The position numbers were made by a program, and so were the translations under genes. This document shows positions 484-24,527 of a stretch of DNA of 32,922 nucleotides, piece after piece. The DNA is from Clostridiales bacterium (GTDB taxonomy: Bacteria; Bacillota; Clostridia; Christensenellales; UBA3700): positions 30,009-62,930 of the forward strand of contig JAAVHQ010000001.1 of NCBI GenBank assembly GCA_014799645.1, in the 5' to 3' direction. Under the pieces are notes generated by a model. That model had not been told where the DNA came from. It did not search any database and saw only the letters and a list, made by a program, of their open reading frames with translations. Each line of letters begins with the position of its first letter. Within the stretch, counting starts at the first letter, position 1.

Positions 484-1086
484 TTGAATAAAAAAGTATA
501 TTCATCTTCTATAAAAAAGACACCGTTCAAATATGCTACTTCAAAGAAGATTGCGAAATTAATATTAGATGGATGTGGAAGGCAGGAAGTCTTTGATAAA
601 TGTTATACAGAGAACTATATAGAGATTGAGTCATCGGACCGTCGTAAAGAAATAACAAATGTAGTGTATTCTAGGTTGATTCACATTGACGAATTTTTAT
701 TAAAGCAATTTTATGAAAGTGATGTAGAAACGTCAAAGTTTATTCTAGTATATGCAATAGCAAAGAGTGATGAATTATTCTTTGATTTTATGTTCGAGAT
801 TTATCGAGAAGCGTTATTGGGTAATAAAGATTATATTTCCATTGACGATTTTGATAATTTCTTTGCGGTTAAAAAGGAAACCGATTTAATTGTGGCAACA
901 TGGGGATATTTCACAATTGATCAGTTGGCAAAAGGTTATAGGAATATTCTGGTCGAGTCAGGAATGGGTGTGAGAGATAGGAGAAGTATAAAAGTAACTA
1001 AACTTATGGTACATCCATTAGTGCAAGATTATATTAAGCAAATCGGAGATTCAGAATATCTAAAAGCGTTGTTAGGAGAAAACTAA
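484..1086 (+). CDS. brxA: BREX protein BrxA (DUF1819-like)
   Basis: 200 aa, first gene before brxB and brxC; size, position and the LFFDFMFEIYRE / W...TIDQL...YRNILVESG segments fit BrxA. Confidence 0.85.
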   Translation: MNKKVYSSSIKKTPFKYATSKKIAKLILDGCGRQEVFDKCYTENYIEIESSDRRKEITNVVYSRLIHIDEFLLKQFYESDVETSKFILVYAIAKSDELFFDFMFEIYREALLGNKDYISIDDFDNFFAVKKETDLIVATWGYFTIDQLAKGYRNILVESGMGVRDRRSIKVTKLMVHPLVQDYIKQIGDSEYLKALLGEN

Positions 1087-1087
1087 A

Positions 1088-1693
1088 ATGGCGGAAAGAA
1101 GTTTAAATGATAGATTTGTTGAGCTTGAAGATAGAATGATAAGTGTAGAGGCTTTAACACGTTATGGCACGGCAAATGACTTGAAGTTTTACATATTTGA
1201 TTATAATCCAAAAGATGAGCTTGTAGTTCGAAAAGAGGTTAAGAAGTTAAAAGAGCGAAATCCTAACATAATAGAATTTGATCTTTATGATATGATGATG
1301 CAGATTATCGATGATGAAGGATATATGGAAGATATAATCCGCATGGAGCAAGAGTATGATAGAAAATTATTATTGTCTGAAATTTTTCAACCATTGTTAT
1401 CGGTAGAAGAGGCAGATAATCGATTATTGGAAATGTTTATTGATAGAGCCGAGGATAACGGAGATAAAATAGTTCTTATAACAGGTATTGGGAAATCCTA
1501 TCCCGTAATAAGAAGCCACACTATATTAAATAATTTGCAGAGCATATTTAGACGTAATCCTGTTGTGATGATGTATCCTGGCAGGTTCGAGATAAAGAAT
1601 TTAATGACATTGAGGCTGTTTGAACGGCTTGATGATGACAATTATTACAGAGCATTCCCACTAGTGGAAAGGAGGAAAGGAAATGATTATTAA
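1088..1693 (+). CDS. brxB: BREX protein BrxB (DUF1788)
   Basis: Motifs FYIFDYNPKDE, ITGIGKSYPVIRSHTILNNL, MMYPG and NYYRAF. Confidence 0.92.
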   Translation: MAERSLNDRFVELEDRMISVEALTRYGTANDLKFYIFDYNPKDELVVRKEVKKLKERNPNIIEFDLYDMMMQIIDDEGYMEDIIRMEQEYDRKLLLSEIFQPLLSVEEADNRLLEMFIDRAEDNGDKIVLITGIGKSYPVIRSHTILNNLQSIFRRNPVVMMYPGRFEIKNLMTLRLFERLDDDNYYRAFPLVERRKGNDY

Positions 1694-4600
1694 GGATTTA
1701 TTTAAGAAGGAGATCGATAGAAGCATTCAAGGTGTCGTTACCATTGGTAATGAGGATGAATGCCAAAAATTGCAGGAGCTTGAGGAGTATGTTTGCACCG
1801 ATGAGATAACGAAGTCTTTCCGTACTTTTTTCCGCAAATATAGGGAATCAATTTCTGTTCCAACGGAGAAAATAGGTGTTTGGATAACAGGCTTTTTTGG
1901 TTCTGGTAAGTCACACTTTTTGAAAATACTTGGATATATTCTTGAAAATGAGCTAGTTGTGGGTAATGAAGCGGTAAATTATTTTGAAGAAAAAATACAA
2001 GATCAAATGATTCTTGCCGACATAAAGCAATGTGCTAAAGCTAATAATAAAGTAGTTCTTTTTAATATCGATTCAAAGGCAAAATCAGATTCAAAGAATC
2101 GTTCGCAAGCTATTATGGATATTATGTTGCGCGCCTTTAATGAATCAGTTGGATACTGTGGATCTTCCCCGTGGGTTGCGGATATGGAAAGAACCTTAGA
2201 TAGTGAGAATTTACTGGAAGCGTTCATTAATAAATTTGAGGAATTGTCGGGCAGGAATTGGAGACAAACACGCGCCAAAGCTTTACTTAATCGGGATTAT
2301 ATCATCAAATCTCTTGTTGTGGCTCGTGGCATGAGCGAAGATAGTGCCAAAGATTTTGTTGACGATCAGATGAGACATTTTACAAACACAACAGAGGACT
2401 TTGCAAAAATAGTAAATGACTATTGCAAAAAGAACAAAAAGCGTGTTGTGTTTCTTATGGATGAGGTTGGGCAATTTATCGGAACAAATGGCGAACTTAT
2501 GCTTAACCTACAAACTTGTGTAGAAGATTTAGGCAAATATTGTCGTGGACAAGCATGGGTAGTCGTTACTTCTCAGCAAGAGCTGAAGGCAATGATTGAA
2601 AGTACAAAAGCAAAGCAAAACGATTTCTCGAAGATTCAAGGTCGTTTTGATATACGCCTTTTGTTAAGCGGATCAAATGCGGACGAAGTTATCAAGAAAA
2701 GAATACTAGAGAAAAAGGATATAGCAGTTACGCCTCTTAAGACACTATATGAAACTATCGGAAGCAAGATATCAAATCTTATTCTTTTTGATGGCAGACC
2801 GACTTGGAGTGGGTATGCAGATGCTGAGGAATTCAAGGACGTATATCCGTTTGTTTCGTATCAATTTGAATTATTGCAAAAAGTTTTCGAATCGATACGT
2901 GAGCACGGTATGAGTGAGGGAAAACATCTTTCACAAAATGAGCGTTCGCTTTTGAGTGCTTTTCAAGAATCAGCAAAGAAAATTGCAGATTATGAAACGG
3001 GGATATTAGTCCCATTTGACAGTTTCTATCAAACCATAGAACAGTTTATAGACTACGATATAAAAACAGTATTCTCCAATGCTGAGCGCCGTACAAGTCT
3101 TGATAAATTTGCTATTAGAGTTTTGCGTGTTCTTTTTATGATAAAGCACGTGAAAGAAATGCCGGCAACTATCAATAGACTTGCTACTTTAATGGTTGAA
3201 AGTGTAAACGAAGATAAGGCTGCATTAAAAAATCGTATTTATGAGGCGTTAAAGTTACTAGAAGAAGAAACATTAATACAACGCAATGGAGAAGTATACG
3301 ATTTCTTGACTAACGCAGAGCAGGACGTAAATAAGCAAATTAACAATATGCCCCATAATGAAGGAGATGTGCAAAGAAGCATTCTCGATATTGTATATGA
3401 TAGAGTGCTTGATAATAATAAACTGCGTTATGAAAACCGCTATGATTTTTCTTTGAATCGTATAGTAGATCAAGAGTCTAAAGGTTCATTCAGCCAAGAT
3501 AGTATCACTCTAAAAATCTTTACAAATTTTTCGGATCTGCATGATGAGGCTACTTTTGCAGCCGAATCAGCAAGAACAAATGCTGTGGTAGTTGATATGA
3601 CGGCAGGAACGTATATTGATGAATTGATTCGCGCTAATAAAATTAATATATTTAAACGTAATAATAGCGCATCAATGTCTGCTGCAATGACTGAGATAAT
3701 GAGCAAGAAATCCGCTGAGTATTCCGAGAGAATGAAACGCGCTGAAGATATAATCAGGCAAGTTCTTCGTACAGCTCCTATTTATTTGAATGGTAATAAA
3801 CTTGATATTAAAGAAAAAGATGGAAGAGATAGATTGACAGATGCATTGAAAGAAATGGTCAAGCAAGATTATTATAAGCTTGGACTTGTTTCTTATTTCT
3901 ATAACGATTCGAGAGCAGTATTTGAGGTTCTGGATGATAATATGGAAACAATGTTGGGTAGTGATTTTACGCATGACTCAAATGCTGCTGCATACTCTGA
4001 GATATTCGAGAAGATAAAAAATGATAAGTCCCTAGGTAGAAGAATTACAGTCAAGGGTTTGTTGGATTTCTTTTCTAAGAAGCCTTATGGATGGCGTGAA
4101 ATTGATGTTTTAGGTATGATTGCAACGCTTTGGAAAAAGAGCGCATTACAGATTGTAATACATGAAAATTTGGTTGACGCGAACAACCGTATGTTCAAGA
4201 ACGACTTCTCGCGTAAAAATGGCATTGATACTATGGTTATTAGAATTCAGGAAAAGATTGATGATAATATCCTTTATCAAGTCAAGAAGATAATGCTTGA
4301 TACATATGCCGAGAATTTGCCAATTGAAGAAAAGAAATTGAAAGAAGGTATTGTAAGTTTCTTTGAGCGTAAGCGTGATTTCCTATCTAATCTCAAGGTA
4401 AAGTATGGAGTTGAATATGCAGGCAGTAGAGTAGTTGCTGAAATATATCGAGATTTTGAATCTATTTTACGCTCGACAGACACAATTACGATATTCAACG
4501 AAATCATTTCTCGAAAAGATAGATTGTCTAATCACGCAGAAGAATTAGAGCAATTAGAGAGTTTCTATAAAGAAGGAAGCAATCAACAGCAAAATTATAA

Positions 4601-5219
4601 AGATGCAACATTGATTGCCGATTGGTATCGCGATAACTATATGCTGAATGATTTATCAAATTTATCCGAAGTTATTGATAAGATTAACGAGATACTAGCA
4701 CTCGAAATGCCATTTTCGAAGATGACCGAACTTGCGAATCTTGTTTTTAAGGCAAGAGAAATAAAAGAAACAATTCTTGCAGAAAAGTGTAAGCGAACTA
4801 AAAAGAGTTTGGAAACCGATAGAGATGCAGTCAACAAAGAGATGCGTGAGGCACTTGAACTCGAACTTACTGCTGAGCAAAAGAAAAGAATTGAAGATAA
4901 GGCAGAAGAATTGAATAAAACATATGACTCTTGGTTGGGGAATTTGCTTCCCAATACACCAAATATGGAGGCATACATCACATCTAGCCAGAATGCGCTT
5001 TCGAGATTTAAGGAATTTATTTCAATAATCATTACAGAAAAACGCGCTGGTGTGGAATCTACAAAATCTATTCGTAGCAAACGTGTAAAGGTAATTGAAT
5101 GTGTTCCTGTGGCTAATAAAAAAATAAAGACTAAAGATGACATAGAAAAGGTCGTAGCAACTATTAGGGAAATATTGCTTTCCGAACTCGTCGATAACGA
5201 TGAAATCAACCTTGACTGA
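1683..5219 (+). CDS. brxC: BREX P-loop ATPase BrxC
   Basis: 1178 aa; Walker A GFFGSGKSHFLK, Walker B FLMDEVGQF, FSKIQGRF. Confidence 0.95.
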   Translation: MIIKDLFKKEIDRSIQGVVTIGNEDECQKLQELEEYVCTDEITKSFRTFFRKYRESISVPTEKIGVWITGFFGSGKSHFLKILGYILENELVVGNEAVNYFEEKIQDQMILADIKQCAKANNKVVLFNIDSKAKSDSKNRSQAIMDIMLRAFNESVGYCGSSPWVADMERTLDSENLLEAFINKFEELSGRNWRQTRAKALLNRDYIIKSLVVARGMSEDSAKDFVDDQMRHFTNTTEDFAKIVNDYCKKNKKRVVFLMDEVGQFIGTNGELMLNLQTCVEDLGKYCRGQAWVVVTSQQELKAMIESTKAKQNDFSKIQGRFDIRLLLSGSNADEVIKKRILEKKDIAVTPLKTLYETIGSKISNLILFDGRPTWSGYADAEEFKDVYPFVSYQFELLQKVFESIREHGMSEGKHLSQNERSLLSAFQESAKKIADYETGILVPFDSFYQTIEQFIDYDIKTVFSNAERRTSLDKFAIRVLRVLFMIKHVKEMPATINRLATLMVESVNEDKAALKNRIYEALKLLEEETLIQRNGEVYDFLTNAEQDVNKQINNMPHNEGDVQRSILDIVYDRVLDNNKLRYENRYDFSLNRIVDQESKGSFSQDSITLKIFTNFSDLHDEATFAAESARTNAVVVDMTAGTYIDELIRANKINIFKRNNSASMSAAMTEIMSKKSAEYSERMKRAEDIIRQVLRTAPIYLNGNKLDIKEKDGRDRLTDALKEMVKQDYYKLGLVSYFYNDSRAVFEVLDDNMETMLGSDFTHDSNAAAYSEIFEKIKNDKSLGRRITVKGLLDFFSKKPYGWREIDVLGMIATLWKKSALQIVIHENLVDANNRMFKNDFSRKNGIDTMVIRIQEKIDDNILYQVKKIMLDTYAENLPIEEKKLKEGIVSFFERKRDFLSNLKVKYGVEYAGSRVVAEIYRDFESILRSTDTITIFNEIISRKDRLSNHAEELEQLESFYKEGSNQQQNYKDATLIADWYRDNYMLNDLSNLSEVIDKINEILALEMPFSKMTELANLVFKAREIKETILAEKCKRTKKSLETDRDAVNKEMREALELELTAEQKKRIEDKAEELNKTYDSWLGNLLPNTPNMEAYITSSQNALSRFKEFISIIITEKRAGVESTKSIRSKRVKVIECVPVANKKIKTKDDIEKVVATIREILLSELVDNDEINLD

Positions 5220-5230
5220 TAGGAGTATAT

Positions 5231-7120
5231 ATGGATAAAAGAGCATTACAACTTTATGCAATGTGGGCAAAGGATAATTTGGAAAAACAAGTAGAAGTTT
5301 CCTTAAAGATGATTGGTATCAATGGGGACACAGATATCAAAGAATCAAGAGTCATAGGAGATTATACTGTTATTGAGAATGATCCTATTTCATATCCTAA
5401 AGAATTGCATAGTAAGCGTCAAATGATAGTCGAACTTATTAAGAGTGATGGATATAAAACTACAATAGAGGAGTTTGCATATACGTGGTTTAATCGTTTT
5501 GTGTCTTTACGCTTTATGGAGGTACATGACTTTTTGCCGCATGGTTTCCGATTGCTTTCTTCACGAGAGGGTAGTATAGAGCCTGAAATATTAAAGAATC
5601 TTCCGTTTGTAAAAGACGACCTGGAACTTGATTTAACACAATGCGAGAAACTTAAAGCCACAGGAATTGAGGATCTATATAGATATGTGCTATTCCGTCA
5701 ATGCAAGGCATTATCGGGAATATTACCAATGTTATTCGAAGCAGATAATGATTGCTTAGAATTATTATTACCTAAGACGCTTTTACTTGGCGATACAGTG
5801 ATTACAAAACTTGTGGCACTTGGAGAAGATGTGTTCCTCGAAGATATAGAAGTAATTGGTTGGCTGTATCAATTTTATATATCTGCGAAAAAAGACGCTG
5901 TTTATAAAGAAAAGAAGACAATAACAAAAGATACGTTGCCAGCCGTTACGCAGTTGTTCACACCGGATTGGATTGTGCGTTATATGGCAGAAAACTCATT
6001 GGGGAGGCTCTGGTTAGAAAGTTATCCAGCATCCCCATTGCGCAATGAGATGAAGTATTTTGTTCCTGAGGCTGTTCAGCCAGAAGAGGTGCAGCGCAAA
6101 ATTGATTCAGTAAAATATACATCGGTAAATCCAGAAGATATCAAGATAATTGAGCCGTGTTGTGGCTCTGGGCATATCCTTGTATATGTATTTGATTTAT
6201 TATATAAAATTTATGAAGAGAAAGGTTATCAAAAGCGTGATATACCTACGTTAATATTATCCAAAAACATATGTGGTCTCGATGTTGATAAACGCGCATC
6301 GCAGCTTGCAGCATTTTCGCTTGTAATGAAGGCGAGAAGTGTTAATCCTCGGTTTTTTAACTCTAATTATTATGTAAAGCCACAAGTATACGAAATATGG
6401 GATTCTCGTGTACTACATAGAATGAGATATAAGAAATTATTAGAAGAGACAAATCTTCTTTCGGCTGAGCAGATAGAGGATATTGAGTATTTGGCAGAAC
6501 AATTCCGTTATGCTAAAACGATAGGCTCATTACTCAAGATAAAACAAATGAATTGGGACCGCATAGATAACACAATAAATATACTTGAGCAAAAAGTAGT
6601 TTACAACGTGTTTAATCTAGAATTGTTGAATATAGCAATTCCACTTATTAAAAGGCTTGTAGTGCAGGCAAAAATACTTGCAAATAAATATGACGTTATG
6701 ATTACGAACCCGCCATATATAGGTATATCATCAATGGAATCGCAAGTGAAAGACTATGCTGTAACGTTTTATCCAAACAGCAAAACTGATATGTTTGCTA
6801 TGTTTATGGAGACAGAGTTTGTAAAACCAAATGGGTTCTGCGCTATGATAAATATGCACAGCTGGATGTTCCTTTCAAGTTATGAGAATTTGCGCAAGTC
6901 AATTTTGATGACAAAAGAAATAGTAACTATGGCTCATCTGGGTGCAAGGGCGTTTGAGACAATAGGTGGCGAGGTTGTTCAAACGACAACATTTGTAATA
7001 CGCAATGGAAACTTTGGCGGTAACGGAGTTTATTTCAGACTAGTGGATAGCAGTGATAAGGAGAATGATTTCCTTAAAACCCTTAGAAATGCGGGGGGTG
7101 GGGGTACTCTACATAGTTAG
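5231..7120 (+). CDS. pglX: PglX (BrxX) adenine methyltransferase, N-terminal and catalytic part of a split gene
   Basis: AYTWFNR, TQLFTPDWIVRYM, motif I EPCCGSG, motif IV NPPY; stops five codons after the G-tract, at the start of the TRD. Confidence 0.92.
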   Translation: MDKRALQLYAMWAKDNLEKQVEVSLKMIGINGDTDIKESRVIGDYTVIENDPISYPKELHSKRQMIVELIKSDGYKTTIEEFAYTWFNRFVSLRFMEVHDFLPHGFRLLSSREGSIEPEILKNLPFVKDDLELDLTQCEKLKATGIEDLYRYVLFRQCKALSGILPMLFEADNDCLELLLPKTLLLGDTVITKLVALGEDVFLEDIEVIGWLYQFYISAKKDAVYKEKKTITKDTLPAVTQLFTPDWIVRYMAENSLGRLWLESYPASPLRNEMKYFVPEAVQPEEVQRKIDSVKYTSVNPEDIKIIEPCCGSGHILVYVFDLLYKIYEEKGYQKRDIPTLILSKNICGLDVDKRASQLAAFSLVMKARSVNPRFFNSNYYVKPQVYEIWDSRVLHRMRYKKLLEETNLLSAEQIEDIEYLAEQFRYAKTIGSLLKIKQMNWDRIDNTINILEQKVVYNVFNLELLNIAIPLIKRLVVQAKILANKYDVMITNPPYIGISSMESQVKDYAVTFYPNSKTDMFAMFMETEFVKPNGFCAMINMHSWMFLSSYENLRKSILMTKEIVTMAHLGARAFETIGGEVVQTTTFVIRNGNFGGNGVYFRLVDSSDKENDFLKTLRNAGGGGTLHS

Positions 7121-7823
7121 TGCAGAGGTATTCTTTTCTATTCCTAGTAACTTAATTATTTATTGGTTGAGCAATGCTATAATCGAAGTTTTTGGGAAGA
7201 GTAAAACATTGTCATCAATAGCAACTCCAAAACAGGGATTAGCTACTGGTAAAAATGATTTGTTTGTTAGATTATGGCATGAGGTCAAGACTGAAAAACT
7301 TTGCCTGGATGCAACGGACTCTATTCAAGCAGTATCTACTGGGAAGAAATGGTTTCCTTATAACAAGGGCGGGGCATATAGGAAATGGTATGGGAATAAT
7401 GATTGCATTATAAACTGGGAAGCAAATGGTCGAGCGATCAGTAATTATTCTGGATCAGTTATAAGAAATCCAAATTACTATTTCTTTGAGTCAATCTCAT
7501 GGTCCAAGATTGCAAGTGGTCCAATTGCATTTAGATATAAGCCTAATGGACACATATTTGATGTAGCAGGATGCAGTATATTTTGCGAACATTCTCAATT
7601 GGAGTATTTGTTAGGAGCAGTAAACTCTAATGTTATAATGAATATCATAAAATCAACTGCGCCTACACTTAATTATGAGGTTGGTCAAGTAGCAAATATC
7701 CCTATTATTTTCGAGAACGAAAATGCAGTTCGCGAAGTAGTGGACAAAAATATAAAAATAAGTAAAGCGGATTGGGATTCTTTTGAAGAGTCATGGGGCT
7801 TTGGAAAGCATCCACTAATATAA
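7053..7823 (+). CDS. pglX: PglX target-recognition cassette 1, in the +1 frame relative to the methyltransferase ORF (PglX homology begins near 7100)
   Basis: QGLATG..FVRLWHEV, KWFPYNKGGAYRKWYGN, DWDSFEESWGFGKHPLI*; no well-spaced SD for its candidate starts. Confidence 0.85.
   Translation: MIRRMISLKPLEMRGVGVLYIVSAEVFFSIPSNLIIYWLSNAIIEVFGKSKTLSSIATPKQGLATGKNDLFVRLWHEVKTEKLCLDATDSIQAVSTGKKWFPYNKGGAYRKWYGNNDCIINWEANGRAISNYSGSVIRNPNYYFFESISWSKIASGPIAFRYKPNGHIFDVAGCSIFCEHSQLEYLLGAVNSNVIMNIIKSTAPTLNYEVGQVANIPIIFENENAVREVVDKNIKISKADWDSFEESWGFGKHPLI
7093..7104 (+). repeat. Interrupted poly-G tract (G6-T-G5) at the PglX methyltransferase/TRD1 frame junction
   Basis: GGGGGGTGGGGG in AT-rich DNA; losing one base puts 5231 in frame with the ORF ending at 7823. 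Confidence 0.8.
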
Positions 7824-7826
7824 CAG

Positions 7827-7863
7827 CAGGAGGATTATTATTCTCCTGAAAACAGGAGAGAAT
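7827..7863 (+). promoter_or_regulatory. Two alternative hairpins controlling access to the SD of TRD cassette 2
   Basis: ATTCTCCTG (7840-7848) can pair with CAGGAGGAT (7827-7835) or with CAGGAGA (7853-7859), which contains the SD. Confidence 0.6.
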
Positions 7864-8592
7864 ATGCCAAATTTGAAATATGAAACAAAGATGGACACTT
7901 ATAGTAAATTACCGGGTAATCCTATAGCCTATTGGATTGGATTAGACCTAATTAAATGTTTTGAGGAAGGTAAGAGATTTGATTCGTTTGGAGAGCCTAA
8001 GTCTGGGGTTATGACAGGTGATGATAATAAGTTTATTCGCCTTTGGTTTGAACCAATTTCTAAAAAAATTGGGTTCGGTCTTAAGAATGCGATAGAAATG
8101 AAAGAATCTATGAAGAAATGGTTTCCAGTAACGCGTGGTGGATCATATAGGAAGTGGTTCGGTAATCTTGAAGAAATAGTAAATCTAGAAAATGGTGGTT
8201 ATGCTATAAAGAATAATGGCAAGAATTATCGTCTAAGAGATGAAAAGTATTATATGCAAGAAGGACTGACTTGGACAATGATTACGACTACCAATTTATC
8301 TGTACGTATAGCTGAAGCTGGCGTATTATTTGGTAATGGAGGCCCAACAACATTTGTTAAAGAAAAAGAGTATTATTTGCTAGGATTGTTAAATAGTAAA
8401 GTCGTTAATGCAATCGTAAGTGTACTTAATCCTACGATGAATATTGTCATTAGCGACATCTGTTCAATTCCCGTTATTTTTAACAGGGTTGAGCCAGTTG
8501 AAACTATAGTTGCTAATAATCTTGTAATATCAAAATACGATTGGAATGCTTTTGAGACCTCATGGGATTTTAAAAGGCATCCATTAATTTGA
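7864..8592 (+). CDS. pglX: PglX target-recognition cassette 2, a stand-alone ORF
   Basis: Own SD AGGAG and ATG; LPGNPIAYW, KWFPVTRGGSYRKWFGN, DWNAFETSWDFKRHPLI*. Confidence 0.88.
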   Translation: MPNLKYETKMDTYSKLPGNPIAYWIGLDLIKCFEEGKRFDSFGEPKSGVMTGDDNKFIRLWFEPISKKIGFGLKNAIEMKESMKKWFPVTRGGSYRKWFGNLEEIVNLENGGYAIKNNGKNYRLRDEKYYMQEGLTWTMITTTNLSVRIAEAGVLFGNGGPTTFVKEKEYYLLGLLNSKVVNAIVSVLNPTMNIVISDICSIPVIFNRVEPVETIVANNLVISKYDWNAFETSWDFKRHPLI

Positions 8593-8599
8593 GGTAATT

Positions 8600-8920
8600 A
8601 TGATAAGAGTTGTTTTAAAGAGTAAAAAAGAATTACACTATGCCGAGGCAATCATAGATGACAAAGAAACTTTAGTACTAAAAGGTGCAAAGATTAATTT
8701 AATTGAATCTTTTCCGCAAATGTCTCAAGCATTGATTCTATTGCGCAGAGATAGAATGTTAGTATCAGAGGATGGGGTATTGCTCAAAGATATAAAATTT
8801 ACTAGTCCAAGTACAGCTGCGCAGTTTGTTACTGGTAGAAGTGTAAACGGTTATATTGCTTGGCGCCCTAATGACGAAATAAGCCTTAAAGAATATCTTG
8901 GGAAAAGGAGAGAAATTTGA
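8600..8920 (+). CDS. DUF4357 / RAMA-like domain protein
   Basis: Signature DIKFTSPSTAAQFVTGRSVNGYIAW. Confidence 0.8.
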   Translation: MIRVVLKSKKELHYAEAIIDDKETLVLKGAKINLIESFPQMSQALILLRRDRMLVSEDGVLLKDIKFTSPSTAAQFVTGRSVNGYIAWRPNDEISLKEYLGKRREI

Positions 8921-10065
8921 TGAAAGAGACCCTTGTTGCACTTATAGACGATATTTCAAATATAGAAAAACATTTTTATATTCCCTCAATGCCAGCGGGG
9001 GCATTTGCCGTTCCAGTAGAGCAAATTAGCAATAGTCAGGAATTTCAATTATGGAGACAGAAAGTTTTACGTGAGTTGCATGAACTCTATTCTGTACATG
9101 ACAAAGACAAATTTCTAAAAGGGACAATTGAAGCTTTGACAAAAGATTTCAATACTTGGCAAGAACGAAAAGATTTTAATAATCTTAAAGCCAAATTGCT
9201 GGCGATACTAGATAATATCGATGTTTATTATGCGCCTGCAGTAGAAAAAGAGAATCTTGATAAACCTGCAATGATTTTTATCAGTCATTCAACAAAAGAT
9301 AAAGAATATGCGACAGCGTTAGTTAATTTGTTTGAGAGTATGGGATTAGATGAAGATACTGTTTTTTGTAGTTCAGTTCCAGGCTATGATGTAAAATTGG
9401 GAAATGACATATATGAACATCTAAGAAATTTATTTCAGACAAGAGATTTACATATTGTATATATGTTATCTAAGAACTTTTATAATAGTCCTGCAAGTTT
9501 AAATGAAATGGGGGCTGCATGGGTACTTAAAAATGAAGTTACATCTATATTGTTGCCTGGATTTAGTTTCGATGAAATGAAAGGAGTAGTGGATAATCGA
9601 GAAATAGCTATAAAACTAGATGTCGATGAAATAGAATTAAAGGACAAGCTTAATCAGTTATATGAAACAATAATTAACGAGTTTAAGTTGAAGAAAAAAA
9701 GTAGTACACTTTGGGAATGTAAACGTGATTCTTTCATAAAAAGAGTTGTAGGTATACATGGAAGCGTAGAATCCAAAGTGGCTAAGGCAGAGATATTAAG
9801 CAAAGAAGCAGAGGAGATTTTAAAGAATGCTATTCAGAGTTATGATGCACAAATTATTGTTGCTCATTATATAACTGGTGGGAAATGTATTCAAGTAGGC
9901 TGTAAAAGCTATTCGGAATCAATGGGAGCAAGGGAATTTAGTAAATGGGACGCGGCATTTGATGAATTGTTAAGAATCGGATATGTTAAGGCGATTGGAA
10001 CGAAGGGGTCTGTTTTCCAGGTTACAAATGCTGGGTTTAAATATATTGAGGAGAAAGTTAAATAG
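8920..10065 (+). CDS. TIR-domain protein with N- and C-terminal extensions
   Basis: IFISHSTKD, VFCSS.PGY, LSKNFYNSPASLNEMGAAW (catalytic-type Glu); start overlaps the upstream stop as TGATG. Confidence 0.85.
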   Translation: MKETLVALIDDISNIEKHFYIPSMPAGAFAVPVEQISNSQEFQLWRQKVLRELHELYSVHDKDKFLKGTIEALTKDFNTWQERKDFNNLKAKLLAILDNIDVYYAPAVEKENLDKPAMIFISHSTKDKEYATALVNLFESMGLDEDTVFCSSVPGYDVKLGNDIYEHLRNLFQTRDLHIVYMLSKNFYNSPASLNEMGAAWVLKNEVTSILLPGFSFDEMKGVVDNREIAIKLDVDEIELKDKLNQLYETIINEFKLKKKSSTLWECKRDSFIKRVVGIHGSVESKVAKAEILSKEAEEILKNAIQSYDAQIIVAHYITGGKCIQVGCKSYSESMGAREFSKWDAAFDELLRIGYVKAIGTKGSVFQVTNAGFKYIEEKVK

Positions 10066-10075
10066 GAGATTGATT

Positions 10076-11011
10076 ATGGGTAGATTAATTGAAGATAAGT
10101 ATAGAGCTTGGGAAGAAGAGTGCGAGCAACGATTTAATCAACTCAAGGCAAACGAGGAGGAACTCAACCGTATTTTCATTGAGATTTATGGTCTACAAGA
10201 TGAGCTTACTTCCGAAGTAGAAGATAAGGATATAACAGTGCGCAAAGCTGATTTGCAACGTGAGATTAAGTCACTAATCTCCTATCTTATAGGTGTTGAG
10301 TTTGGTAGGTATTCTCTTGATGTGGAAGGGCTTGTGTATGCGGGCGGAGAATGGGATAGTTCTAAGTACACTACATATATTCCTGATGAAGATGGAATTG
10401 TTATGGTGTATTCTAAACTTGGTATGCAAGATGGACTGGCAGCGCGTATTATTAAATTAATAAAGCATATCTATGGGGAAGATACATATCGTCAAAATAT
10501 AGATTTTATAGCAGAAGCGCTTGGTAAAAAACAGAATGAAGCATCCGAAGAGACATTAAATCGGTATATTTGTGATGATTTCTATACTGACCATTTAAAG
10601 ATTTACCAAAAGCGTCCTATCTATTGGATGTTTTCAAGTGGCAAAAATAGTGGTTTCAAATGTTTGATTTATATGCATAGGTACAATGAAGATACAGTTG
10701 CGAGAATCAATGCAAAGTATTTTCTTCCAGAATCCACTAGATTAAAGAATGAACTTGACGAAATTGAAATAGCGGTGGAAGGCAGTGAAGGACGAGATAA
10801 GATCCGATTGGATAAAGAGCGATCCAAGATAGCCGCTGCTTATAACGAAGCAATTGAATATGGTCAAATACTCGATAATATAGCAAATCAATATATTAAA
10901 ATTGATTTAGATGATGGAGTTAAAGTAAACTATGAAAAATTCCAAAATATAGAGATTGTAACTGACGGTGGAACGAAAGTTAAAAAGAACTTGCTAGTTC
11001 CTATTAAGTAA
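10076..11011 (+). CDS. pglX: PglX C-terminal part, translated separately
   Basis: SD AGGAG 10064-10068 and ATG 10076; RFNQLKANEEELNRIFIEIYGL, FGRYSLD, YQKRPIYW, IDLDDGVKVNY. Confidence 0.9.
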   Translation: MGRLIEDKYRAWEEECEQRFNQLKANEEELNRIFIEIYGLQDELTSEVEDKDITVRKADLQREIKSLISYLIGVEFGRYSLDVEGLVYAGGEWDSSKYTTYIPDEDGIVMVYSKLGMQDGLAARIIKLIKHIYGEDTYRQNIDFIAEALGKKQNEASEETLNRYICDDFYTDHLKIYQKRPIYWMFSSGKNSGFKCLIYMHRYNEDTVARINAKYFLPESTRLKNELDEIEIAVEGSEGRDKIRLDKERSKIAAAYNEAIEYGQILDNIANQYIKIDLDDGVKVNYEKFQNIEIVTDGGTKVKKNLLVPIK

Positions 11012-11021
11012 GAGGTGTATA

Positions 11022-13544
11022 ATGGCAAATATCGATTATCAAGAAGCGATAAAAGAGATAGAGAAGATTTTTCGCGCAGATATTTTAACGCGAAAGATAG
11101 TTTTTTGGTACGATGCTCCTGCTAATTTCAAGGATGATATTGAGACGGCATCGTTTGATTTCTGTAGGCTTTTGGTGTGTCAAAATAATGAATTCGCTAT
11201 AAAGAAAACTATAGAGAAAGATGACACCACAAGCAACATACTTGTCTATATTCCTTCTGAAAAACCGAAGGATACTGAAAATTGGCTTTTGGATATTTTG
11301 ATGTACAGCGAGGAATATTACGCAGATACTGTTGCGCTTACTATGCGCCATCTTGGACTTTCAAATCCAGACTTACGCAAAGTAATAGAAAAGCATACAA
11401 AGTTTTTTGATAGTTCACAAAGAAACAGAAAACTTGAGAATTATGTTTCATTAAATGATGGGATGACTACAAATAATTTTATGCTTGCTATGATATCGGT
11501 ATTAGTAAAATCATCTGTTCGTTCCATAGAGGCTATTTTGACAGAACTTGTTTTTGACAATAGTGATCATTCTAAGTATAAAGAACTTTGCAAGTTTGGT
11601 TTTGAGGATTATCTATGGGATGAAATTGCAAAAGAGTATGATTATTCCGGAGATCAAAAAATAGATAGTCTCATCAAGAAATTTTTGTTTACAGCTATGC
11701 TTGAACAAGATATGCAGCTTGGGACATTGCCGTCATTTTATAAGCAATTTATAATTGATGGAGAAGGAAAAAATGGCGCAAAGAGTTTTGTGCACCATAT
11801 TAAGCAAGATCCACGTTATAGAGAACTGCAACTCAACGTCGCAACAGATCTTAAAATTGATGGGCTTTTGGTGGCAAGAGATGCTAGTTGTATTGGGACG
11901 AGCGATATATTCGAGTGTATTGAGAGTTGCGTGATAAAGAAAGTGTCTGCGAGCTTGGTGAGTGGTAGCCTTGATTATGATGCGTTTGTTAAGATAATTA
12001 ATGATAGAAACAACTCTATGTGGCAAGCTGAACATAAGGATGAGTATTCTTTTTTACGATCGGCAATAGAGTTTTTGCGTTTAGTGGATGTTTCTATTCC
12101 GCATGATTTGTCAGCTGTAGAATATATTAAACTTTATACTAACATATTATATAAAGTCGATATGAATTATAGGCATCTTTGTATTAGCTATGACAAGATA
12201 GAAAATCCCATTTTTGAAATTGAAGAATTATGTTGTAGAATAGAGTCACATTATGAGCAGAATTATTTGGGAGAACTAGGAAGAGAATTCAGCGCAGCTG
12301 TTTCCAAACAAAATAAATGGGATTTCTCAGGTATTCAAAAAAGTTCGCAGTTCTATCAGCTTATTCAAAGGCAACAATATAAAAAGCAGTTTGTAATCAT
12401 TTCTGATGGATTAAGATATGAAGTTGGATATGAGATTTTCAATAGTATTAAGAATAATTCTGCACTGCGAGGCAAGGTCTCGATAGATTATGCAGTTTCA
12501 CCATTGCCGTCTGAAACAAGATTTGGTATGGCATCGCTACTTCCTCATAAAGAGCTTGCTTATATTGACGGATCCGTTTTAGTTGATGGAAAAGCATCAA
12601 ACTCTTTCGCTGCTCGGAATGAGATTCTAAAAGCGAAAAATGCAGGGCATGCTGCAATCGCATACGAAGAAATCAATCGTTTTACAAGAGACCAACTTCG
12701 TGTATACATGTCAGACAAGTCACTTGTGTATATTTATCATAATGTAATAGATAAAGCAGGAGAGCATAACGAAACAAAGGTGTTTGACGAAACGATAAAC
12801 GCAATTGAAGAAATTACATCACTGGTCAAGAAACTTTATAATAATCTACAGATATCTAATTTCTATATCACAGCAGACCATGGTTTCTTGTATAGACAGA
12901 ATGTAATAGGTGAATCTGAAAAATATAGTAATATAGTTTCGCAAAGTCCTATTGAGGCATCAAAAAGGTATGTGCTTACGGATGACGACAGTATTAGTAT
13001 TCCGTACACAACGGAATTTAGACTCGAAGAAATTCACGGAGATTTGCGAGTAATCAATCCGTATGGATATGACTTATTTAAAACACAAGGAGCAGGCTTA
13101 CAGTATGTTCATGGTGGAGCCTCTTTGCAAGAAACAATTATTCCTATTGTGCACATAAGCGAACTTAATGCGAAGAAAGGCGAAAAATTGTCACGCCCAG
13201 TTGGAGTTCGTTTAAAGAGCGTGACAAGAAAGATTACAAATAGGAGTTTCGCACTTGATTTTGAACAATATGAGAAAGTTGAAGATAAAGTACAAGCGAT
13301 TAATTGTGAAACATATTTCGTAGATGAAAATGGATATAAAGTTTCAGGGGAATATCGTTTTATTGCAAACTCTAGCAGTGATGATATCGCCACAAGGGTG
13401 ACTCGTATTAGGTTCACTCTTAAAAATATAGAATTTGATAGAAACAATCGTTACTATCTTATCTTGCGAAATGTAGAATCGGATAGCGAATATATTGAGA
13501 AAGAACAGTTCACGATTGATATTCTAGGATTTAGAACTTTTTAA
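11022..13544 (+). CDS. pglZ: BREX PglZ phosphatase/nuclease-fold protein
   Basis: IVFWYD, IISDGLRYE, LPSETRFGMASLLP, TADHGF, YVHGGASLQE. Confidence 0.95.
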   Translation: MANIDYQEAIKEIEKIFRADILTRKIVFWYDAPANFKDDIETASFDFCRLLVCQNNEFAIKKTIEKDDTTSNILVYIPSEKPKDTENWLLDILMYSEEYYADTVALTMRHLGLSNPDLRKVIEKHTKFFDSSQRNRKLENYVSLNDGMTTNNFMLAMISVLVKSSVRSIEAILTELVFDNSDHSKYKELCKFGFEDYLWDEIAKEYDYSGDQKIDSLIKKFLFTAMLEQDMQLGTLPSFYKQFIIDGEGKNGAKSFVHHIKQDPRYRELQLNVATDLKIDGLLVARDASCIGTSDIFECIESCVIKKVSASLVSGSLDYDAFVKIINDRNNSMWQAEHKDEYSFLRSAIEFLRLVDVSIPHDLSAVEYIKLYTNILYKVDMNYRHLCISYDKIENPIFEIEELCCRIESHYEQNYLGELGREFSAAVSKQNKWDFSGIQKSSQFYQLIQRQQYKKQFVIISDGLRYEVGYEIFNSIKNNSALRGKVSIDYAVSPLPSETRFGMASLLPHKELAYIDGSVLVDGKASNSFAARNEILKAKNAGHAAIAYEEINRFTRDQLRVYMSDKSLVYIYHNVIDKAGEHNETKVFDETINAIEEITSLVKKLYNNLQISNFYITADHGFLYRQNVIGESEKYSNIVSQSPIEASKRYVLTDDDSISIPYTTEFRLEEIHGDLRVINPYGYDLFKTQGAGLQYVHGGASLQETIIPIVHISELNAKKGEKLSRPVGVRLKSVTRKITNRSFALDFEQYEKVEDKVQAINCETYFVDENGYKVSGEYRFIANSSSDDIATRVTRIRFTLKNIEFDRNNRYYLILRNVESDSEYIEKEQFTIDILGFRTF

Positions 13545-13556
13545 TGGAGGAAGGTT

Positions 13557-15581
13557 ATGGACGCATTAGATAAAAAAGTATTTGAGATATTTTCTGGAAG
13601 AGTTGTGCCTAAAGGCGCAACGAAAAAGATTAAAAATAGCGCAAATGTGCCAACGTATGTTTTGGAATATTTGTTGGGTACATATTGTACTTCTGATGAT
13701 GAGGCAGAAATCGAGGAGGGAATAGAGCAAGTAAAACGCATTCTCTCTGATAATTACGTTCGTCCAGACGAAGCGGAGAAAATTAAGGCAAAAATCAAAG
13801 AAAAAGGTAATCATACAGTTATTGATAAATTGAGTGTAAAACTCAATGAAAGAAATGACACTTTTGAAGCCGATTTTATGTTTCTTGGCATTAATAAAAT
13901 TTATGTTCATCCTAAGTATGTTCGCCAATACGAAAAATTACTTGCGGGAGGCATTTGGTGTATTGTCGATATGTCATACTATTTTAATGAGGACGAAAAT
14001 GCTAGTCCATTTATTATAAATGATATTACGCCAATTCAAATGCCAAATCTTGATAAGAATGAAATTATAGAAGCGAGAAAGCAATTCTCAAAGGAAGAGT
14101 GGATTGATTTTATTTTGCGTTCTACTGGTATGGAACCTACTCAATTTGATTATAGAGTAAAATGGCATCTTCTTGCACGACTTGCTCCTCTAGTCGAAAA
14201 TAATGTCAATCTTTGTGAGTTAGGCCCACGTGGTACGGGGAAGTCACATATTTATAAGGAGCTCTCTCCTAATTCAATTTTGATTTCTGGTGGACAGACA
14301 ACAGTTGCAAATCTCTTTTATAATATGGGTAGAAGGCAAGTCGGACTTGTAGGCTTGTGGGATTGTGTCGCTTTCGATGAAGTTGCTGGTATCAATTTCA
14401 AAGATAAAGATGGCGTCCAAATTATGAAAGACTATATGGCCTCAGGTTCGTTTGCTCGCGGTAAGGATGAAATTCAGGCAAATGCTTCTATGGTTTTTGT
14501 GGGCAATATCAATCAAAGCGTTGATCTGCTTTTGAAAACGTCGCACTTATTCGAGCCGTTTCCAAGTGCTATGATAGATAGCGCTTTCCTTGATCGTATG
14601 CATTGCTATATTCCAGGTTGGGAAATCCCAAAGATGCGACCAGAATTCTTTACTGATAATTATGGATTTATATCAGATTATATCTCTGAATTTTTCCGAG
14701 AAATGAGAAAAGTACCGCAAACCGATGCTTTCGACAAGTATTTTAGGCTTGGCAGATGTTTGAATCAAAGAGATACCATTGCAGTAAGGAAAATGGTGTC
14801 AGGATTGACAAAAATTATTTATCCTGACGGAGTTGTCACGGAGGAAGAAATAGAGGAAATTCTGAAATATGCCATTGAAGGACGAAGACGTGTAAAAGAG
14901 CAACTTAAGAAGATTGGAGGAATGGAATTTTATGATGTCCAATTCTCATATATTCGCAATGCTAATATGGAGGAGTATTTTGTACCTGTCTTAGAGCAAG
15001 GCGGTGGTAAATTGATTTCTGAGGGCGTAGGCAAGCCAGGACATATCTACACGGTTGCAAATGGAAGTAATGGAATGAAAGGACTATTTAAGTTCGAGAC
15101 CACGATAGCAGAAGGTAGCGGTAAATTTGAGGTGACAGGATTGACTAGTTCGCAGGTTGTTAAGGAATCTGTCAAAATTGCTCAAAACTATTTTAAGGCC
15201 AATGCAAAACAAATAAGTCGACTCATATCGTTAGATTCCAAAAACTATGTTATGCAAGTACAGGATTGCCAAGGTGTAGGGCTTGATAGCAACGTCTCAC
15301 TTGCCGTCCTTGTAGCATATTGCAGTTGTGCGTTGAATAAATCTGTGTTGCCGCAGCTTTGTGTTTTGGGTGCTATGAGCATAGGCGGAACAATTAATAA
15401 AGTTGAAGAATTAGCATCTACGTTGCAAGTTTGCTTTGATGCAGGAGCGAAAAAAGTACTGTTGCCAATGAGTAGTGCTATTGATATAGCTACGGTACCG
15501 AGTGATTTATTTGCTAAATTCCAAATATCATTTTATAGTAGTCCCGAAGATGCGGTAATAAAGGCTTTGGGGATAGAATGA
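13557..15581 (+). CDS. brxL: BREX BrxL (AAA+ and Lon-like C-terminal domain)
   Basis: NVPTYVLEYLLG, Walker A GPRGTGKS, AFDEVAG, Lon-like C-terminus. Confidence 0.95.
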   Translation: MDALDKKVFEIFSGRVVPKGATKKIKNSANVPTYVLEYLLGTYCTSDDEAEIEEGIEQVKRILSDNYVRPDEAEKIKAKIKEKGNHTVIDKLSVKLNERNDTFEADFMFLGINKIYVHPKYVRQYEKLLAGGIWCIVDMSYYFNEDENASPFIINDITPIQMPNLDKNEIIEARKQFSKEEWIDFILRSTGMEPTQFDYRVKWHLLARLAPLVENNVNLCELGPRGTGKSHIYKELSPNSILISGGQTTVANLFYNMGRRQVGLVGLWDCVAFDEVAGINFKDKDGVQIMKDYMASGSFARGKDEIQANASMVFVGNINQSVDLLLKTSHLFEPFPSAMIDSAFLDRMHCYIPGWEIPKMRPEFFTDNYGFISDYISEFFREMRKVPQTDAFDKYFRLGRCLNQRDTIAVRKMVSGLTKIIYPDGVVTEEEIEEILKYAIEGRRRVKEQLKKIGGMEFYDVQFSYIRNANMEEYFVPVLEQGGGKLISEGVGKPGHIYTVANGSNGMKGLFKFETTIAEGSGKFEVTGLTSSQVVKESVKIAQNYFKANAKQISRLISLDSKNYVMQVQDCQGVGLDSNVSLAVLVAYCSCALNKSVLPQLCVLGAMSIGGTINKVEELASTLQVCFDAGAKKVLLPMSSAIDIATVPSDLFAKFQISFYSSPEDAVIKALGIE

Positions 15582-15634: not shown

Positions 15635-16363
15635 ATGTATAATTTTAAGAATTCAAAATCAAATATAATCAACATATTAAAATCAAAGACTCCAATAGAA
15701 GATAAAGAAAAAATTCCAGCTAATCAAGAATTTACTTATGCCAATGCTGTCAGAACATGGGTAAGTGCAATATTTGTTGATATAAAAAGTTCAAGCGAAT
15801 TATTTAAGAATAGGGATGAGAAATTAGCAAGATTGTTAAGAGCATTTACATCTGAAATTATTACGATTTTTCAAGACTCCAATAACTATAATCAAATAGG
15901 AATTAGAGGCGACTGTGTATATGCAATTTACTCTACTCCCCAAAAGGATGATATTAAAGATGTATTTGATATTGCTGTAAAAACAAATACATTTATGAAA
16001 ATGTTTAACAAATTATTAACAGAGCAAGGTTATAGCAATATTGGAGTTGGCATAGGATTGGGAACTGATAAGCAATTAATTATAAAGGCAGGAAGATCAG
16101 GAACTGGAATAAATGATAAGATTTGGATAGGAGATGCTGTTGTTGATGCCTCGAATTTATCTTCTATAGCAAATAGATACGGCTATAAAAAAATTGCAAT
16201 GAATAGCTGCTTTTACAATAATATTAAAAAGTATTATGAGAAAAAGCCTTGGTTTAATTATATTTCGAATTCAACTTATTATAACGATGGATTTTACGAA
16301 TGCGATATAGTTAACACTGAATTTGATAACTGGATAAAAGGTGGAATGAAAGACAATGTCTAA
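15635..16363 (+). CDS. pycC: Class III nucleotide cyclase, Pycsar PycC-like
   Basis: AIFVDIKSSS, RGDCV, IGVGIG, IWIGDAVVDASNL; overlaps a transmembrane effector gene. Confidence 0.8.
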   Translation: MYNFKNSKSNIINILKSKTPIEDKEKIPANQEFTYANAVRTWVSAIFVDIKSSSELFKNRDEKLARLLRAFTSEIITIFQDSNNYNQIGIRGDCVYAIYSTPQKDDIKDVFDIAVKTNTFMKMFNKLLTEQGYSNIGVGIGLGTDKQLIIKAGRSGTGINDKIWIGDAVVDASNLSSIANRYGYKKIAMNSCFYNNIKKYYEKKPWFNYISNSTYYNDGFYECDIVNTEFDNWIKGGMKDNV

Positions 16364-16859
16364 TGAAAAATTAAATGAAAGTTTGCAAGTAATACAAGGT
16401 CAAATTGAGAAATTTGATAATAAAGCGAGCATTTTAATTGCGATTGTGAGCATAGTATTTGCTATCAGTTTAGAGACGTTAAATGTATTTCAGCAAATAT
16501 TTGTACAAGATATGACACAGAAGATTTTCATTAAATACATATTGGCAATAGTGTTTTTATGTTTTTATTTTACATCTTTTATTCTAGAGATGTTTTTCTT
16601 AATCTTAGTTATTTTTCCTAGGAAAAAGAAAAAGAGTGAGTGTCAGTCACTTTCATATTATTTGGATGTTTCCAAGATGACGAAAGAAGAAATTGAAAAG
16701 CAAGCCAGCGTTATGAATGAATCCGCAATTATAGTGGATCAATTGAGCGTTAATGCAAAAATATGCGCTAAGAAGCACAAGAATTTTGTAATCGCTATAT
16801 GGTTAATGATTCCACTAGTGTTATTTATGATAGCATTAACCTTTTTATCAATAATATAG
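16356..16859 (+). CDS. pycTM: Pycsar transmembrane effector
   Basis: DNKASIL, hydrophobic helices, FPR, ICAKKH and a terminal hydrophobic helix; coupled to the cyclase gene. Confidence 0.8.
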   Translation: MSNEKLNESLQVIQGQIEKFDNKASILIAIVSIVFAISLETLNVFQQIFVQDMTQKIFIKYILAIVFLCFYFTSFILEMFFLILVIFPRKKKKSECQSLSYYLDVSKMTKEEIEKQASVMNESAIIVDQLSVNAKICAKKHKNFVIAIWLMIPLVLFMIALTFLSII

Positions 16860-16874
16860 AATAGGAGAACAATT

Positions 16875-21760: not shown

Positions 21761-21946
21761 ATGGAATTATTTAAAGACTATCCCGACGTTGTAAGTGTTG
21801 AACAAGTGTCGGAGATGTTGCACATTGGACAAGTGCTTGCATATAGACTTGTCCGCAGCGGTGAGATTAAATCACGCAAAGTAGGACGCAGATATATCAT
21901 CGCAAAGCGAAACGTAATCGAATTTATAAATGAGGAGGCAGCATAA
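21761..21946 (+). CDS. Excisionase-like helix-turn-helix protein (HTH_17)
   Basis: 61 aa, YPDVVSVEQVSEMLHIG...YRLVRSGEI..RKVGRRYII; SD GGAGG; coupled to the integrase gene. Confidence 0.88.
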   Translation: MELFKDYPDVVSVEQVSEMLHIGQVLAYRLVRSGEIKSRKVGRRYIIAKRNVIEFINEEAA

Positions 21947-23598: not shown

Positions 23599-23636
23599 AT
23601 AATTTAGAAAAAGTAATTGCCCTTTCTTTTAGATTA

Positions 23637-23668
23637 CTCTTGATATTTTTGTCAAGAGGTGCTAAAAT
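23637..23668 (+). promoter_or_regulatory. Promoter overlapped by an inverted repeat
   Basis: TTGATA (23640-23645), 17 nt, TAAAAT (23663-23668) with upstream TG; CTCTTGA-N8-TCAAGAG at 23637-23658. Confidence 0.6.
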
Positions 23669-23672
23669 AATC

Positions 23673-23868
23673 TTGCGACGTCAAATTAAATAAACCTTTT
23701 GTAATTCCCAGATTAATGGGAGTCCAGACTTTGTTTGCGTGAAAGGTAGGATGAAAATTGGTAGTAATACCTGTTCCGACCTGCTTTCCACGGAAAAAGG
23801 TTTATTTGGCGTCGCAACCAAAGGGACGGTATTCTACGGTGCCGTTCCGCAAGGGGCGGCATCTTTTT
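23673..23868 (+). ncRNA. Unassigned structured RNA (multi-stem leader with terminator/antiterminator)
   Basis: Long closing stem 23673-23700 with 23795-23817, internal hairpins with a GNRA loop, and alternative 3' hairpins followed by a T-run. Confidence 0.6.
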
Positions 23869-24378: not shown

Positions 24379-24469
24379 AACAAGACGAACTATAATAATT
24401 GGGGCAATTTAATTGCGTAAACTGTTTGCTAATCATGTCGAACTTATGTTTATATCTATCCGATAAATA

Positions 24470-24498: not shown

Positions 24499-24527
24499 TA
24501 TTTTGACAATAGAAAGGAGAAGAATTA

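Follow-up and report, generated by a model that had tools for sequence, protein, structure and literature searches.

A BREX locus with a divided pglX

The subject of this report is a short G-rich tract within pglX, the methyltransferase gene of a bacteriophage exclusion (BREX) locus on a stretch of 32,922 nucleotides from a Clostridiales bacterium (GenBank assembly GCA_014799645.1, contig JAAVHQ010000001.1, positions 30,009 to 62,930 of the forward strand). The whole of this stretch is called the window, and coordinates are counted from its first letter. The genes brxA, brxB, brxC, pglX, pglZ, and brxL lie in that order from 484 to 15581, all on the plus strand and all six with matches in Pfam and PADLOC, the arrangement of BREX type 1. 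Before pglX come brxA (484-1086; Pfam BrxA, E 5.7e-38; PADLOC BrxA), brxB (1088-1693; Pfam BrxB, E 5.7e-36), and brxC, encoding a P-loop ATPase (1683-5219; PADLOC BrxC over the full length, 1105 bits). After it come pglZ (11022-13544; Pfam PglZ, E 4.7e-46; PADLOC PglZ, 670 bits) and brxL, encoding a Lon-like protein (13557-15581; Pfam BrxL_ATPase, E 1.8e-144, and BrxL_N).

The pglX gene itself is in pieces. The core (5231-7120) encodes 629 amino acids, comprising an N-terminal helical bundle and an N6-adenine methyltransferase; it matches the Pfam families Eco57I, N6_Mtase, and MmeI_Mtase and carries an NPPY motif. There follow, on the same strand, a cassette for a target recognition domain (TRD1, 7105-7823), whose reading frame is intact, lies in the +1 frame, and lacks any start or ribosome-binding site that could be used; a spacer that can form two mutually exclusive hairpins (7821-7866); a second, free-standing cassette (TRD2, 7864-8592) with AGGAGA 5 nt before its ATG; and, beyond two inserted genes considered at the end, a gene of 311 codons for the C-terminal domain (10076-11011), with its own Shine-Dalgarno (SD) sequence and ATG. 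This domain is present neither on the 629-residue core nor on any fusion of the core with TRD1. The PADLOC PglX profile (PDLC02521, 1174 positions) is matched on four separate frames, at positions 1-618 by the core, 627-869 by TRD1, 626-869 by TRD2, and 876-1166 by the C-domain gene, and the solved PglX of Salmonella (8c45) is tiled by the core (6-634), TRD2 (649-885), and the C-domain (972-1210). All parts of a PglX are present, then, and collinear with the solved protein, although on separate genes or frames. Since the pieces tile 8c45, what the tract encodes is the hinge that links the recognition half of PglX to its methyltransferase half. The window's second split falls directly before the long spacer helices of PglX, as those helices are described in passages of PMC11341690.

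The two recognition cassettes are 36% identical. Their ends are conserved (KIPG.PIAYW at the start and DWDSFETSWDFKKHPLI at the end) while the middle is variable, which is how exchangeable modules docking on constant partners would look, to judge by sequence. No further TRD copies were found elsewhere in the genome. Recombination between TRD1 and TRD2 was considered as a switch and rejected; the longest DNA they share is 15 exact bases, or 35 bases at 74%.

The tract at the hinge

The tract runs from 7093 to 7104 on the plus strand and consists of six G's (7093-7098), a T (7099), and five more G's (7100-7104), i.e., G6-T-G5. It encodes a glycine linker. As assembled, the core ends ...RNAGGGGTLHS, with its stop codon five codons past the tract. 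The frame of TRD1 is +1 relative to that of the core and is open from 7044 to 7823; its translation across the junction is ...MRGVGVLYIVSAEVFFSIPSNLIIYW and, over a longer stretch, ...GVGVLYIVSAEVFFSIPSNLIIYW... The loss of one G from either run would join the core to TRD1 in a fusion that by arithmetic has 863 amino acids.

The only SD-like sequence upstream of TRD1 is TAAGGAG, which ends 1 nt before one ATG (7065) and 25 nt before another (7089). The spacing is wrong for both, and TRD1 is therefore without a usable ribosome-binding site. Independent translation of TRD1 from the ATG at 7089 was rejected on the same count, there being no SD sequence there and no start codon conserved in the six out-of-frame relatives described below. 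An initial annotation, made from the letters of the window, had located G6-T-G5 at the junction of methyltransferase and TRD1, predicted that a one-base deletion would yield a fusion of about 860 amino acids, and claimed that TRD1 has no well-spaced SD sequence. The bases of the tract and the end of the core are as it said, the frame of TRD1 and the length of the fusion agree with it, and the distances of TAAGGAG from the two ATGs support it.

The tract is not a chance event: runs of six or more G or C are depleted genome-wide, with 16 observed in the 1.68 Mb (42.4% G+C) and about 240 expected from composition, and the tract is the genome's sole 12-mer with at least 11 G or C. The genome has only one other long G/C homopolymer, a C9 run (G000 contig C9, 38195-38203; L135, 1696-1704) that lies either a little upstream of an open reading frame of the DUF421/YetF family or at its 5' end; it is a second candidate contingency locus.

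Short and fused forms among related proteins

A search with the core through a collection of 5.8 billion proteins gave, with the query, 120 proteins, the 119 relatives being 69-81% identical to it. They fall into two classes, 71 short (615-651 amino acids) and 49 long (838-874 amino acids), and 65 of the short ones have a run of three or more glycines within a few residues of their end. Cores were grouped if at least 95% identical over residues 1-600, and of the nine groups with more than one member, seven contained short and fused forms together; within these mixed groups the glycines number from two to six, and tails from both alternative frames occur. Read from sequence comparison, this mixture appears to be the footprint of a repeat that often changes length within lineages.

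One of the long forms, P0162 (863 amino acids, in frame), is 74% identical to TRD1 through its residues 615-863, over 249 residues without a gap, and TRD1 is therefore an intact cassette. Forms of about 850-870 amino acids with a separate gene for the C-terminal domain recur, and in a wider set, too, TRD and C-domain are often split. Among the best 150 matches in a set of 1.84 billion representative proteins, about 94 have at least 1000 amino acids, 38 have 747-990, and 18 have fewer than 700, as counted from the list.

The repeat in related loci

For comparison at the level of DNA, 128 related loci were collected, 48 from species-representative genomes and 80 from metagenomes, one of them without the end of the core. 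Twelve (L007, L009, L011, L016, L018, L021, L022, L049, L055, L059, L068, and L070) have an uninterrupted run of nine to eleven G's at exactly this junction, six with the core and first TRD in frame and six out of frame. The initial annotation had proposed tract length in related genomes as a check, and what emerges is just such a variable repeat, with alleles in both frames. L007 is an isolate assembly, the name of its contig giving 364x coverage. A thirteenth locus, L057 (8673-8679), is a metagenome contig that ends inside the G run. The hinge run is the sole G/C homopolymer of seven or more in each poly-G pglX region, and the cores of the twelve are 43-79% identical to that of the window. 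The tract of the window would thus be an interrupted copy of the hinge repeat of its relatives and, on this comparison, apparently descends from a genuine phase-variable repeat.

The repeat is associated with extra recognition modules. All twelve poly-G loci have tandem TRD genes, two or three in number (three in L009 and L055; in L016 the second is cut by the end of the contig). Among the 115 loci without the run, 108 have one TRD, two have two, and five have none that was detected; in four of these no more than 63 bases of contig remain after the core, and the fifth, L034, is without a detectable TRD. L063, L094, and L131, which have two matches or a TRD cut by a contig end, are counted as having one each. 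On a tree of 94 cores, the distribution of poly-G requires at least six changes, and in six independent pairs the number of TRDs differs in the same direction (mean 5.9 of 6; sign test, p 0.031).

Start signals are distributed much as in the window. The first TRD of poly-G loci has no SD sequence, and two of the six out-of-frame loci do not offer it even a candidate start codon. Strong start signals, an SD sequence with an ATG, are found on every C-domain gene seen and on nearly all later TRDs; the third TRD of L055 has a weak candidate only. The reading frame of the first TRD is nonetheless intact in all six out-of-frame loci, as it is in the window. L010 and L020, the two loci with two TRDs and no G run, are instructive: at the equivalent junction the core stops, and the first TRD begins with its own SD sequence and ATG. 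This natural split indicates that a core and TRD not covalently joined appear to be a viable design, and the split layout recurs in the twelve poly-G loci as well as in L010 and L020. In L010 the second TRD is fused to the C-domain (10648-12354; 569 amino acids), the core and first TRD are separate genes, and there is no poly-G. Evidently, from the gene layouts compared, the three joints of pglX may be fused or split in different combinations from locus to locus.

L055 (9602-12063) and L070 (5806-7509) have near-identical sequence before the start of the second TRD and before an AbiJ-like gene, despite cores that are 71% and 43% identical, respectively, to that of the window. Such similarity suggests that the cassette array may be passed as a unit from one pglX core to another. 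Two further cases of frame change in pglX occur without a homopolymer, in L004/L006 (G025 contig C5, 301272-301275) and in L094 (9229-9277), one in the core at residue 458 and the other midway through a TRD; ordinary mutation or an error of assembly is the probable cause.

Closer relatives are scarce. Of 41 genomes of the same genus, family, or order (G000, the genome of the window, included), only three gave matches: G000 itself, G025, which has a real PglX that is 46% identical, and G004, weakly. A search of metagenome contigs for the exact pattern of both flanks of the tract with a variable gap between them gave no matches, and 401 bases of the window gave none when used to search the L007 genome by DNA, which is too diverged.

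Two hairpins between TRD1 and TRD2

In nine of the thirteen poly-G loci, counting the window, 33-45 nt separate the stop codon of the first TRD from the ATG of the second, and the spacer contains three elements in the same order: a decoy SD sequence no more than about 15 nt after the stop, an anti-SD sequence, and the true SD sequence of the second TRD. The pairing of the anti-SD with the true SD, which closes the latter, is the consensus fold of the nine loci and has compensatory changes at six of its seven pairs. The alternative is a hairpin of the decoy SD with the anti-SD. The decoy hairpin and the SD-closing hairpin are predicted at -12.5 and -11.6 kcal/mol in the window, -11.9 and -12.4 kcal/mol in L007, and -11.1 and -8.2 kcal/mol in L021; the decoy hairpin is weaker in the six other loci. 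When the 13 nt after the stop codon were shuffled 500 times, the decoy hairpin was reached in 0, 0, and 14 shuffles for the window, L007, and L021, respectively, in 42-54 shuffles for three of the other loci, and in 140-288 for the remaining three. The four poly-G loci with gaps of 9-18 nt are without this module.

Perhaps the pair of hairpins makes translation of TRD2 depend on TRD1 not being translated. A ribosome at the stop codon of TRD1 would cover the decoy, the anti-SD would be freed, and the start of TRD2 would be closed, and TRD2 would thus be made chiefly while TRD1 goes untranslated, a hypothesis derived from predicted folds.

A proposed switch of specificity and its alternatives

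The reading put forward here is that PglX is modular and that the poly-G at its hinge chooses the module: in frame, TRD1 sets the motif, and out of frame, the free TRD2 does. We assign it a probability of about 0.5. In the relatives, as their comparison shows, the run of nine to eleven G's changes length through slipped-strand mispairing at replication. With the run in frame, the core is fused to the first TRD, and with the run out of frame, it ends a few codons later. TRD1, lacking a start signal, would be made only as part of the fusion, while TRD2 and the C-domain would be started independently. In frame, the TRD1 linked in cis would then determine which motif is methylated and defended by BREX. 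In the other state, which is that of the window as assembled, the bare core, free TRD2, and C-domain would act on a different motif, rather than constituting a dead system. Between fused TRD1 and free TRD2 on the one hand and a plain on/off switch on the other, a switch of specificity appears to be the better supported, because wherever the repeat is found it is followed by extra TRD genes that have start signals of their own. A more elaborate scheme, possible but doubtful, would have two layers and no recombinase: slippage at poly-G and masking by the decoy SD would together leave one module in use per cell, the population would hedge its motifs, and the split between TRD and C-domain would serve as a landing pad for small defence genes.

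The window is not itself a typical contingency locus. Such loci have an uninterrupted homopolymer of about seven or eight bases or more inside the reading frame, and here the run is divided into G6 and G5. This interruption should lower slippage by orders of magnitude relative to G9-G11, and with the T splitting the run, switching should be far rarer than in the relatives. The locus is probably held in the state of core plus free TRD2 plus C-domain, and the window's copy of the switch is probably slow or locked, or else misassembled. Thus the specificity switch claimed in the initial annotation draws support from the presence of the repeat in multi-TRD loci and from relatives in and out of frame, but the local copy is interrupted, and we infer the pairing of a free TRD2 with the core.

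Several observations weigh against a switch of specificity. None of the twelve relatives seen as DNA has its tract split by a T. The tract is bridged by none of the metagenomic contigs listed (see below), and the T may therefore be an error of assembly, as may the frame; more generally, part of the apparent variation of the tract may come from homopolymer errors in metagenome assemblies. The core of the window is somewhat isolated, its closest relative being 81.5% identical and its protein cluster having a single member. The poly-G lies beside the cassette array and can travel with it as one block, so its association with the number of TRDs is partly linkage. Loci with three TRDs do not fit a simple choice between two states, nor do the four poly-G loci in which the SD sequence of the second TRD lies directly at the stop codon of the first. 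Finally, the working of a free TRD2 with a truncated core is deduced from the natural split in L010 and L020; a complex of core residues 200-629, C-domain, and TRD2 was predicted with a score of 0.87, and of 0.86 with the core replaced, a score that is not used here as evidence on binding.

The obvious competitor is a plain on/off switch, in which the fusion turns BREX on, the truncated core turns it off, and TRD2 and other downstream TRDs are spare, silent, or relics. That is the published behavior of the G tract in pglX of Streptomyces coelicolor (PMC4365076) and of Cj0031 (PMC4889913), in the passages found there, and it needs no free TRD to function, a capacity here only deduced; moreover, the SD sequence of TRD2 is sequestered in the minimum-energy fold. 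Against it stands the distribution of the repeat: 12 of the 12 loci that have it are multi-TRD, and it occurs in 0 of 108 loci with a single TRD. Nor would one expect relics to keep, as nearly all the later TRDs do, intact frames with a strong SD sequence and ATG, or expect the first TRD of L010 and L020 to stand free at the same junction. Simple on/off switching thus seems rather unlikely. Long homopolymers can also cause RNA polymerase to slip, and perhaps one allele yields both core and fusion without mutation, by transcriptional slippage or by +1 ribosomal frameshifting. The G9-G11 runs of the relatives are long enough for this to be considered, but differences in length at the level of DNA already account for both forms, and the window's runs are only six and five. 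No stimulatory signal came to notice, though no search was aimed at one; recoding has very little to recommend it.

Whether the window shows the true allele is a separate question. Contigs from the Logan collection, from four gut metagenome runs of one study, were used to examine the assembly, and statements about bridging refer to those listed. None crosses 7081-7103; they end at 7080 and 7104 and start at 7104 and 7106, with depths of 1-9 in the bin. With such stops and such depth, with the contig of L057 also ending inside its run, and with the interruption seen in none of twelve relatives, the real allele might be uninterrupted or in frame, and the T, the frameshift, or both might be short-read errors in a low-coverage bin. 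However, independent assemblies, that of a high-coverage isolate among them, often show out-of-frame alleles, so a frameshift alone is not suspicious, and nothing indicates that the T is wrong. An artefact is accordingly judged improbable. More improbable still is that the locus is decaying, its pglX a pseudogene broken by insertions and a frameshift and its pieces mere remnants. It is true that the gene is divided into five, that two unrelated genes separate TRD2 from the C-domain, and that its repeat is degenerate. But the pieces are all open over their full length and match across the profile, start signals are good for TRD2 and the C-domain, the layout recurs in the twelve poly-G loci, despite core identities as low as 43%, and in L010 and L020, and L007 shares 90% identity in the C-domain, a higher figure than in the core.

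Inversion of the shufflon type was also considered as a means of switching pglX and rejected, there being no inverted TRD copies and no recombinase in the operon. No inverted repeats link the TRDs of the window, where the longest arms (21 nt) lie elsewhere; no TRD copies on the minus strand were found in the 128 loci; and the sole integrase (21946-23598) is 11 kb away, outside the operon.

The same metagenomic contigs offer two observations apart from the tract. A related strain, in another sample of the same study, is represented by a contig about 93% identical over 7104-8620, and it therefore shares the order TRD1, TRD2, DUF4357. Short-read assemblies tend to break at poly-G, as L057 does inside its run and as runs X1-X4 do at 7080-7106. 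One may expect that poly-G pglX loci will often be missing from metagenome bins or fragmented in them.

Comparison with known systems

Changes of specificity through a repeat have a precedent in NgoAV of Neisseria gonorrhoeae, where poly-G in the hsdS gene of a Type I system gives a truncated specificity subunit with altered specificity. The likeness is that the length of a repeat alters specificity rather than abolishing activity; the differences are that the enzyme is of another type and that truncation occurs within one S subunit, with no choice made among separate TRD genes.

Statements on the published systems that follow are limited to the passages found in each paper. One close parallel is the Pgl system of S. 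coelicolor (BREX type 2), in which poly-G in pglX goes from 8 to 7 G's, a high-frequency switch of defence (Sumby and Smith 2003, cited in PMC4365076). There as here, poly-G inside pglX changes length, and there the phage-defence phenotype is switched. However, that switch is on/off in a single-piece pglX of an organism with high G+C, and tandem TRDs and a split C-domain are not described in those passages. Close as well are the Type IIG enzymes of Helicobacter pylori, JHP1272 and HP1353-HP1354, which are similar to MmeI and Eco57I (Krebes et al. 2014, PMC3936762). One homopolymer turns them on and off, and a second, as shown experimentally, changes the motif by adding a small recognition element; in this enzyme class, therefore, a frameshift can switch specificity. 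In H. pylori, what is added is a small C-terminal piece resembling a TRD, within one gene of a restriction enzyme, whereas in the window a whole TRD would be coupled or uncoupled at the hinge of the core, and the alternatives, in what is a BREX system, are genes of their own with start signals.

Cj0031 of Campylobacter jejuni (PMC4889913) has G9 in the middle of a fused methyltransferase gene, where it splits two reading frames, and its TRD varies between strains. It differs in being on/off, and downstream alternative TRD genes are not described in the passages found. BREX type 1 has its own means of varying pglX, namely inversions in Lacticaseibacillus rhamnosus and Brevibacterium casei that swap the middle of the gene and leave its N- and C-terminal parts constant (PMC9881135); in B. 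casei, pglX is split before its C-terminal part, which is a separate gene (PMC9881135). Those systems use inverted repeats and a recombinase, whereas all cassettes in the window are on one strand. A 2026 survey of BREX diversity (PMC12839542) contains neither "split" nor "frameshift" and does not mention tandem TRDs in the passages found. A search of the literature, main texts rather than supplementary files, found no description in BREX of poly-G at the hinge together with free-standing tandem TRD genes on the same strand. Poly-G switching of pglX and change of specificity by frameshift in Type IIG enzymes are known, then, and the combination of hinge repeat and stand-alone TRDs appears to be unreported.

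Such a combination would matter because PglX sets the specificity of BREX, and the published routes to its variation are on/off repeats and inversions driven by recombinases. If the reading is correct, a repeat at the hinge that selects either a fused or a free recognition module would be a third and very cheap route to switching motifs. It would also account for the annotation of many pglX genes of gut Firmicutes as fragments; among the 119 closest protein relatives, about 60% are "truncated." Annotating split pglX genes as pseudogenes by default is unwarranted. The reading also suggests that core, TRD, and C-domain of PglX can assemble from separate polypeptides, which would be useful in engineering the specificity of BREX, and the isolate behind L007 is a cultured relative in which the switch is directly testable.

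Accessory genes within and beyond the locus

Between TRD2 and the C-domain gene of the window (8600-10065) lie two unrelated genes on the plus strand, one of 106 codons encoding a DUF4357 protein (8600-8920; Pfam DUF4357, E 1.4e-12; PADLOC PDC-S14) and one encoding an SpbK-like protein with a TIR domain (8920-10065; PADLOC spbK, E 7.9e-62; Pfam TIR_2). Both, like TRD2 and the C-domain gene on either side, have a good SD sequence and ATG. L007 has a 64% identical copy of the TIR gene in the equivalent place. The same gap, between the last TRD gene and a separate C-domain gene, holds unrelated small genes in many loci (L007, 11516-13525; L021, 11356-13085; L022, 11354-13752; L055, 11161-12914; L070, 6610-7509; L075, 9588-10346; L081, 9593-10999; L129, 9580-10422), none of them a TRD. 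Besides the DUF4357 and TIR/SpbK-like genes, its contents include DUF6414, AbiJ-like, PDC-S31/DUF2971, PDC-S60, and PDC-S21 candidates. The gap has the appearance of a hotspot at which accessory defence genes insert into a split gene.

More defence-like genes lie 3' of BREX, at 15635-20785 and 21946-28941. They include a cyclase-like gene with a PycTM effector (Pycsar-like) and a pair encoding an OLD-family ATPase and a UvrD helicase, which by its domains we take to be Gabija-like. The tyrosine integrase, a YpsA/SLOG protein, AbiH, and a second UvrD-like helicase on the minus strand are encoded there as well. Together these genes form a defence island that is probably mobile.

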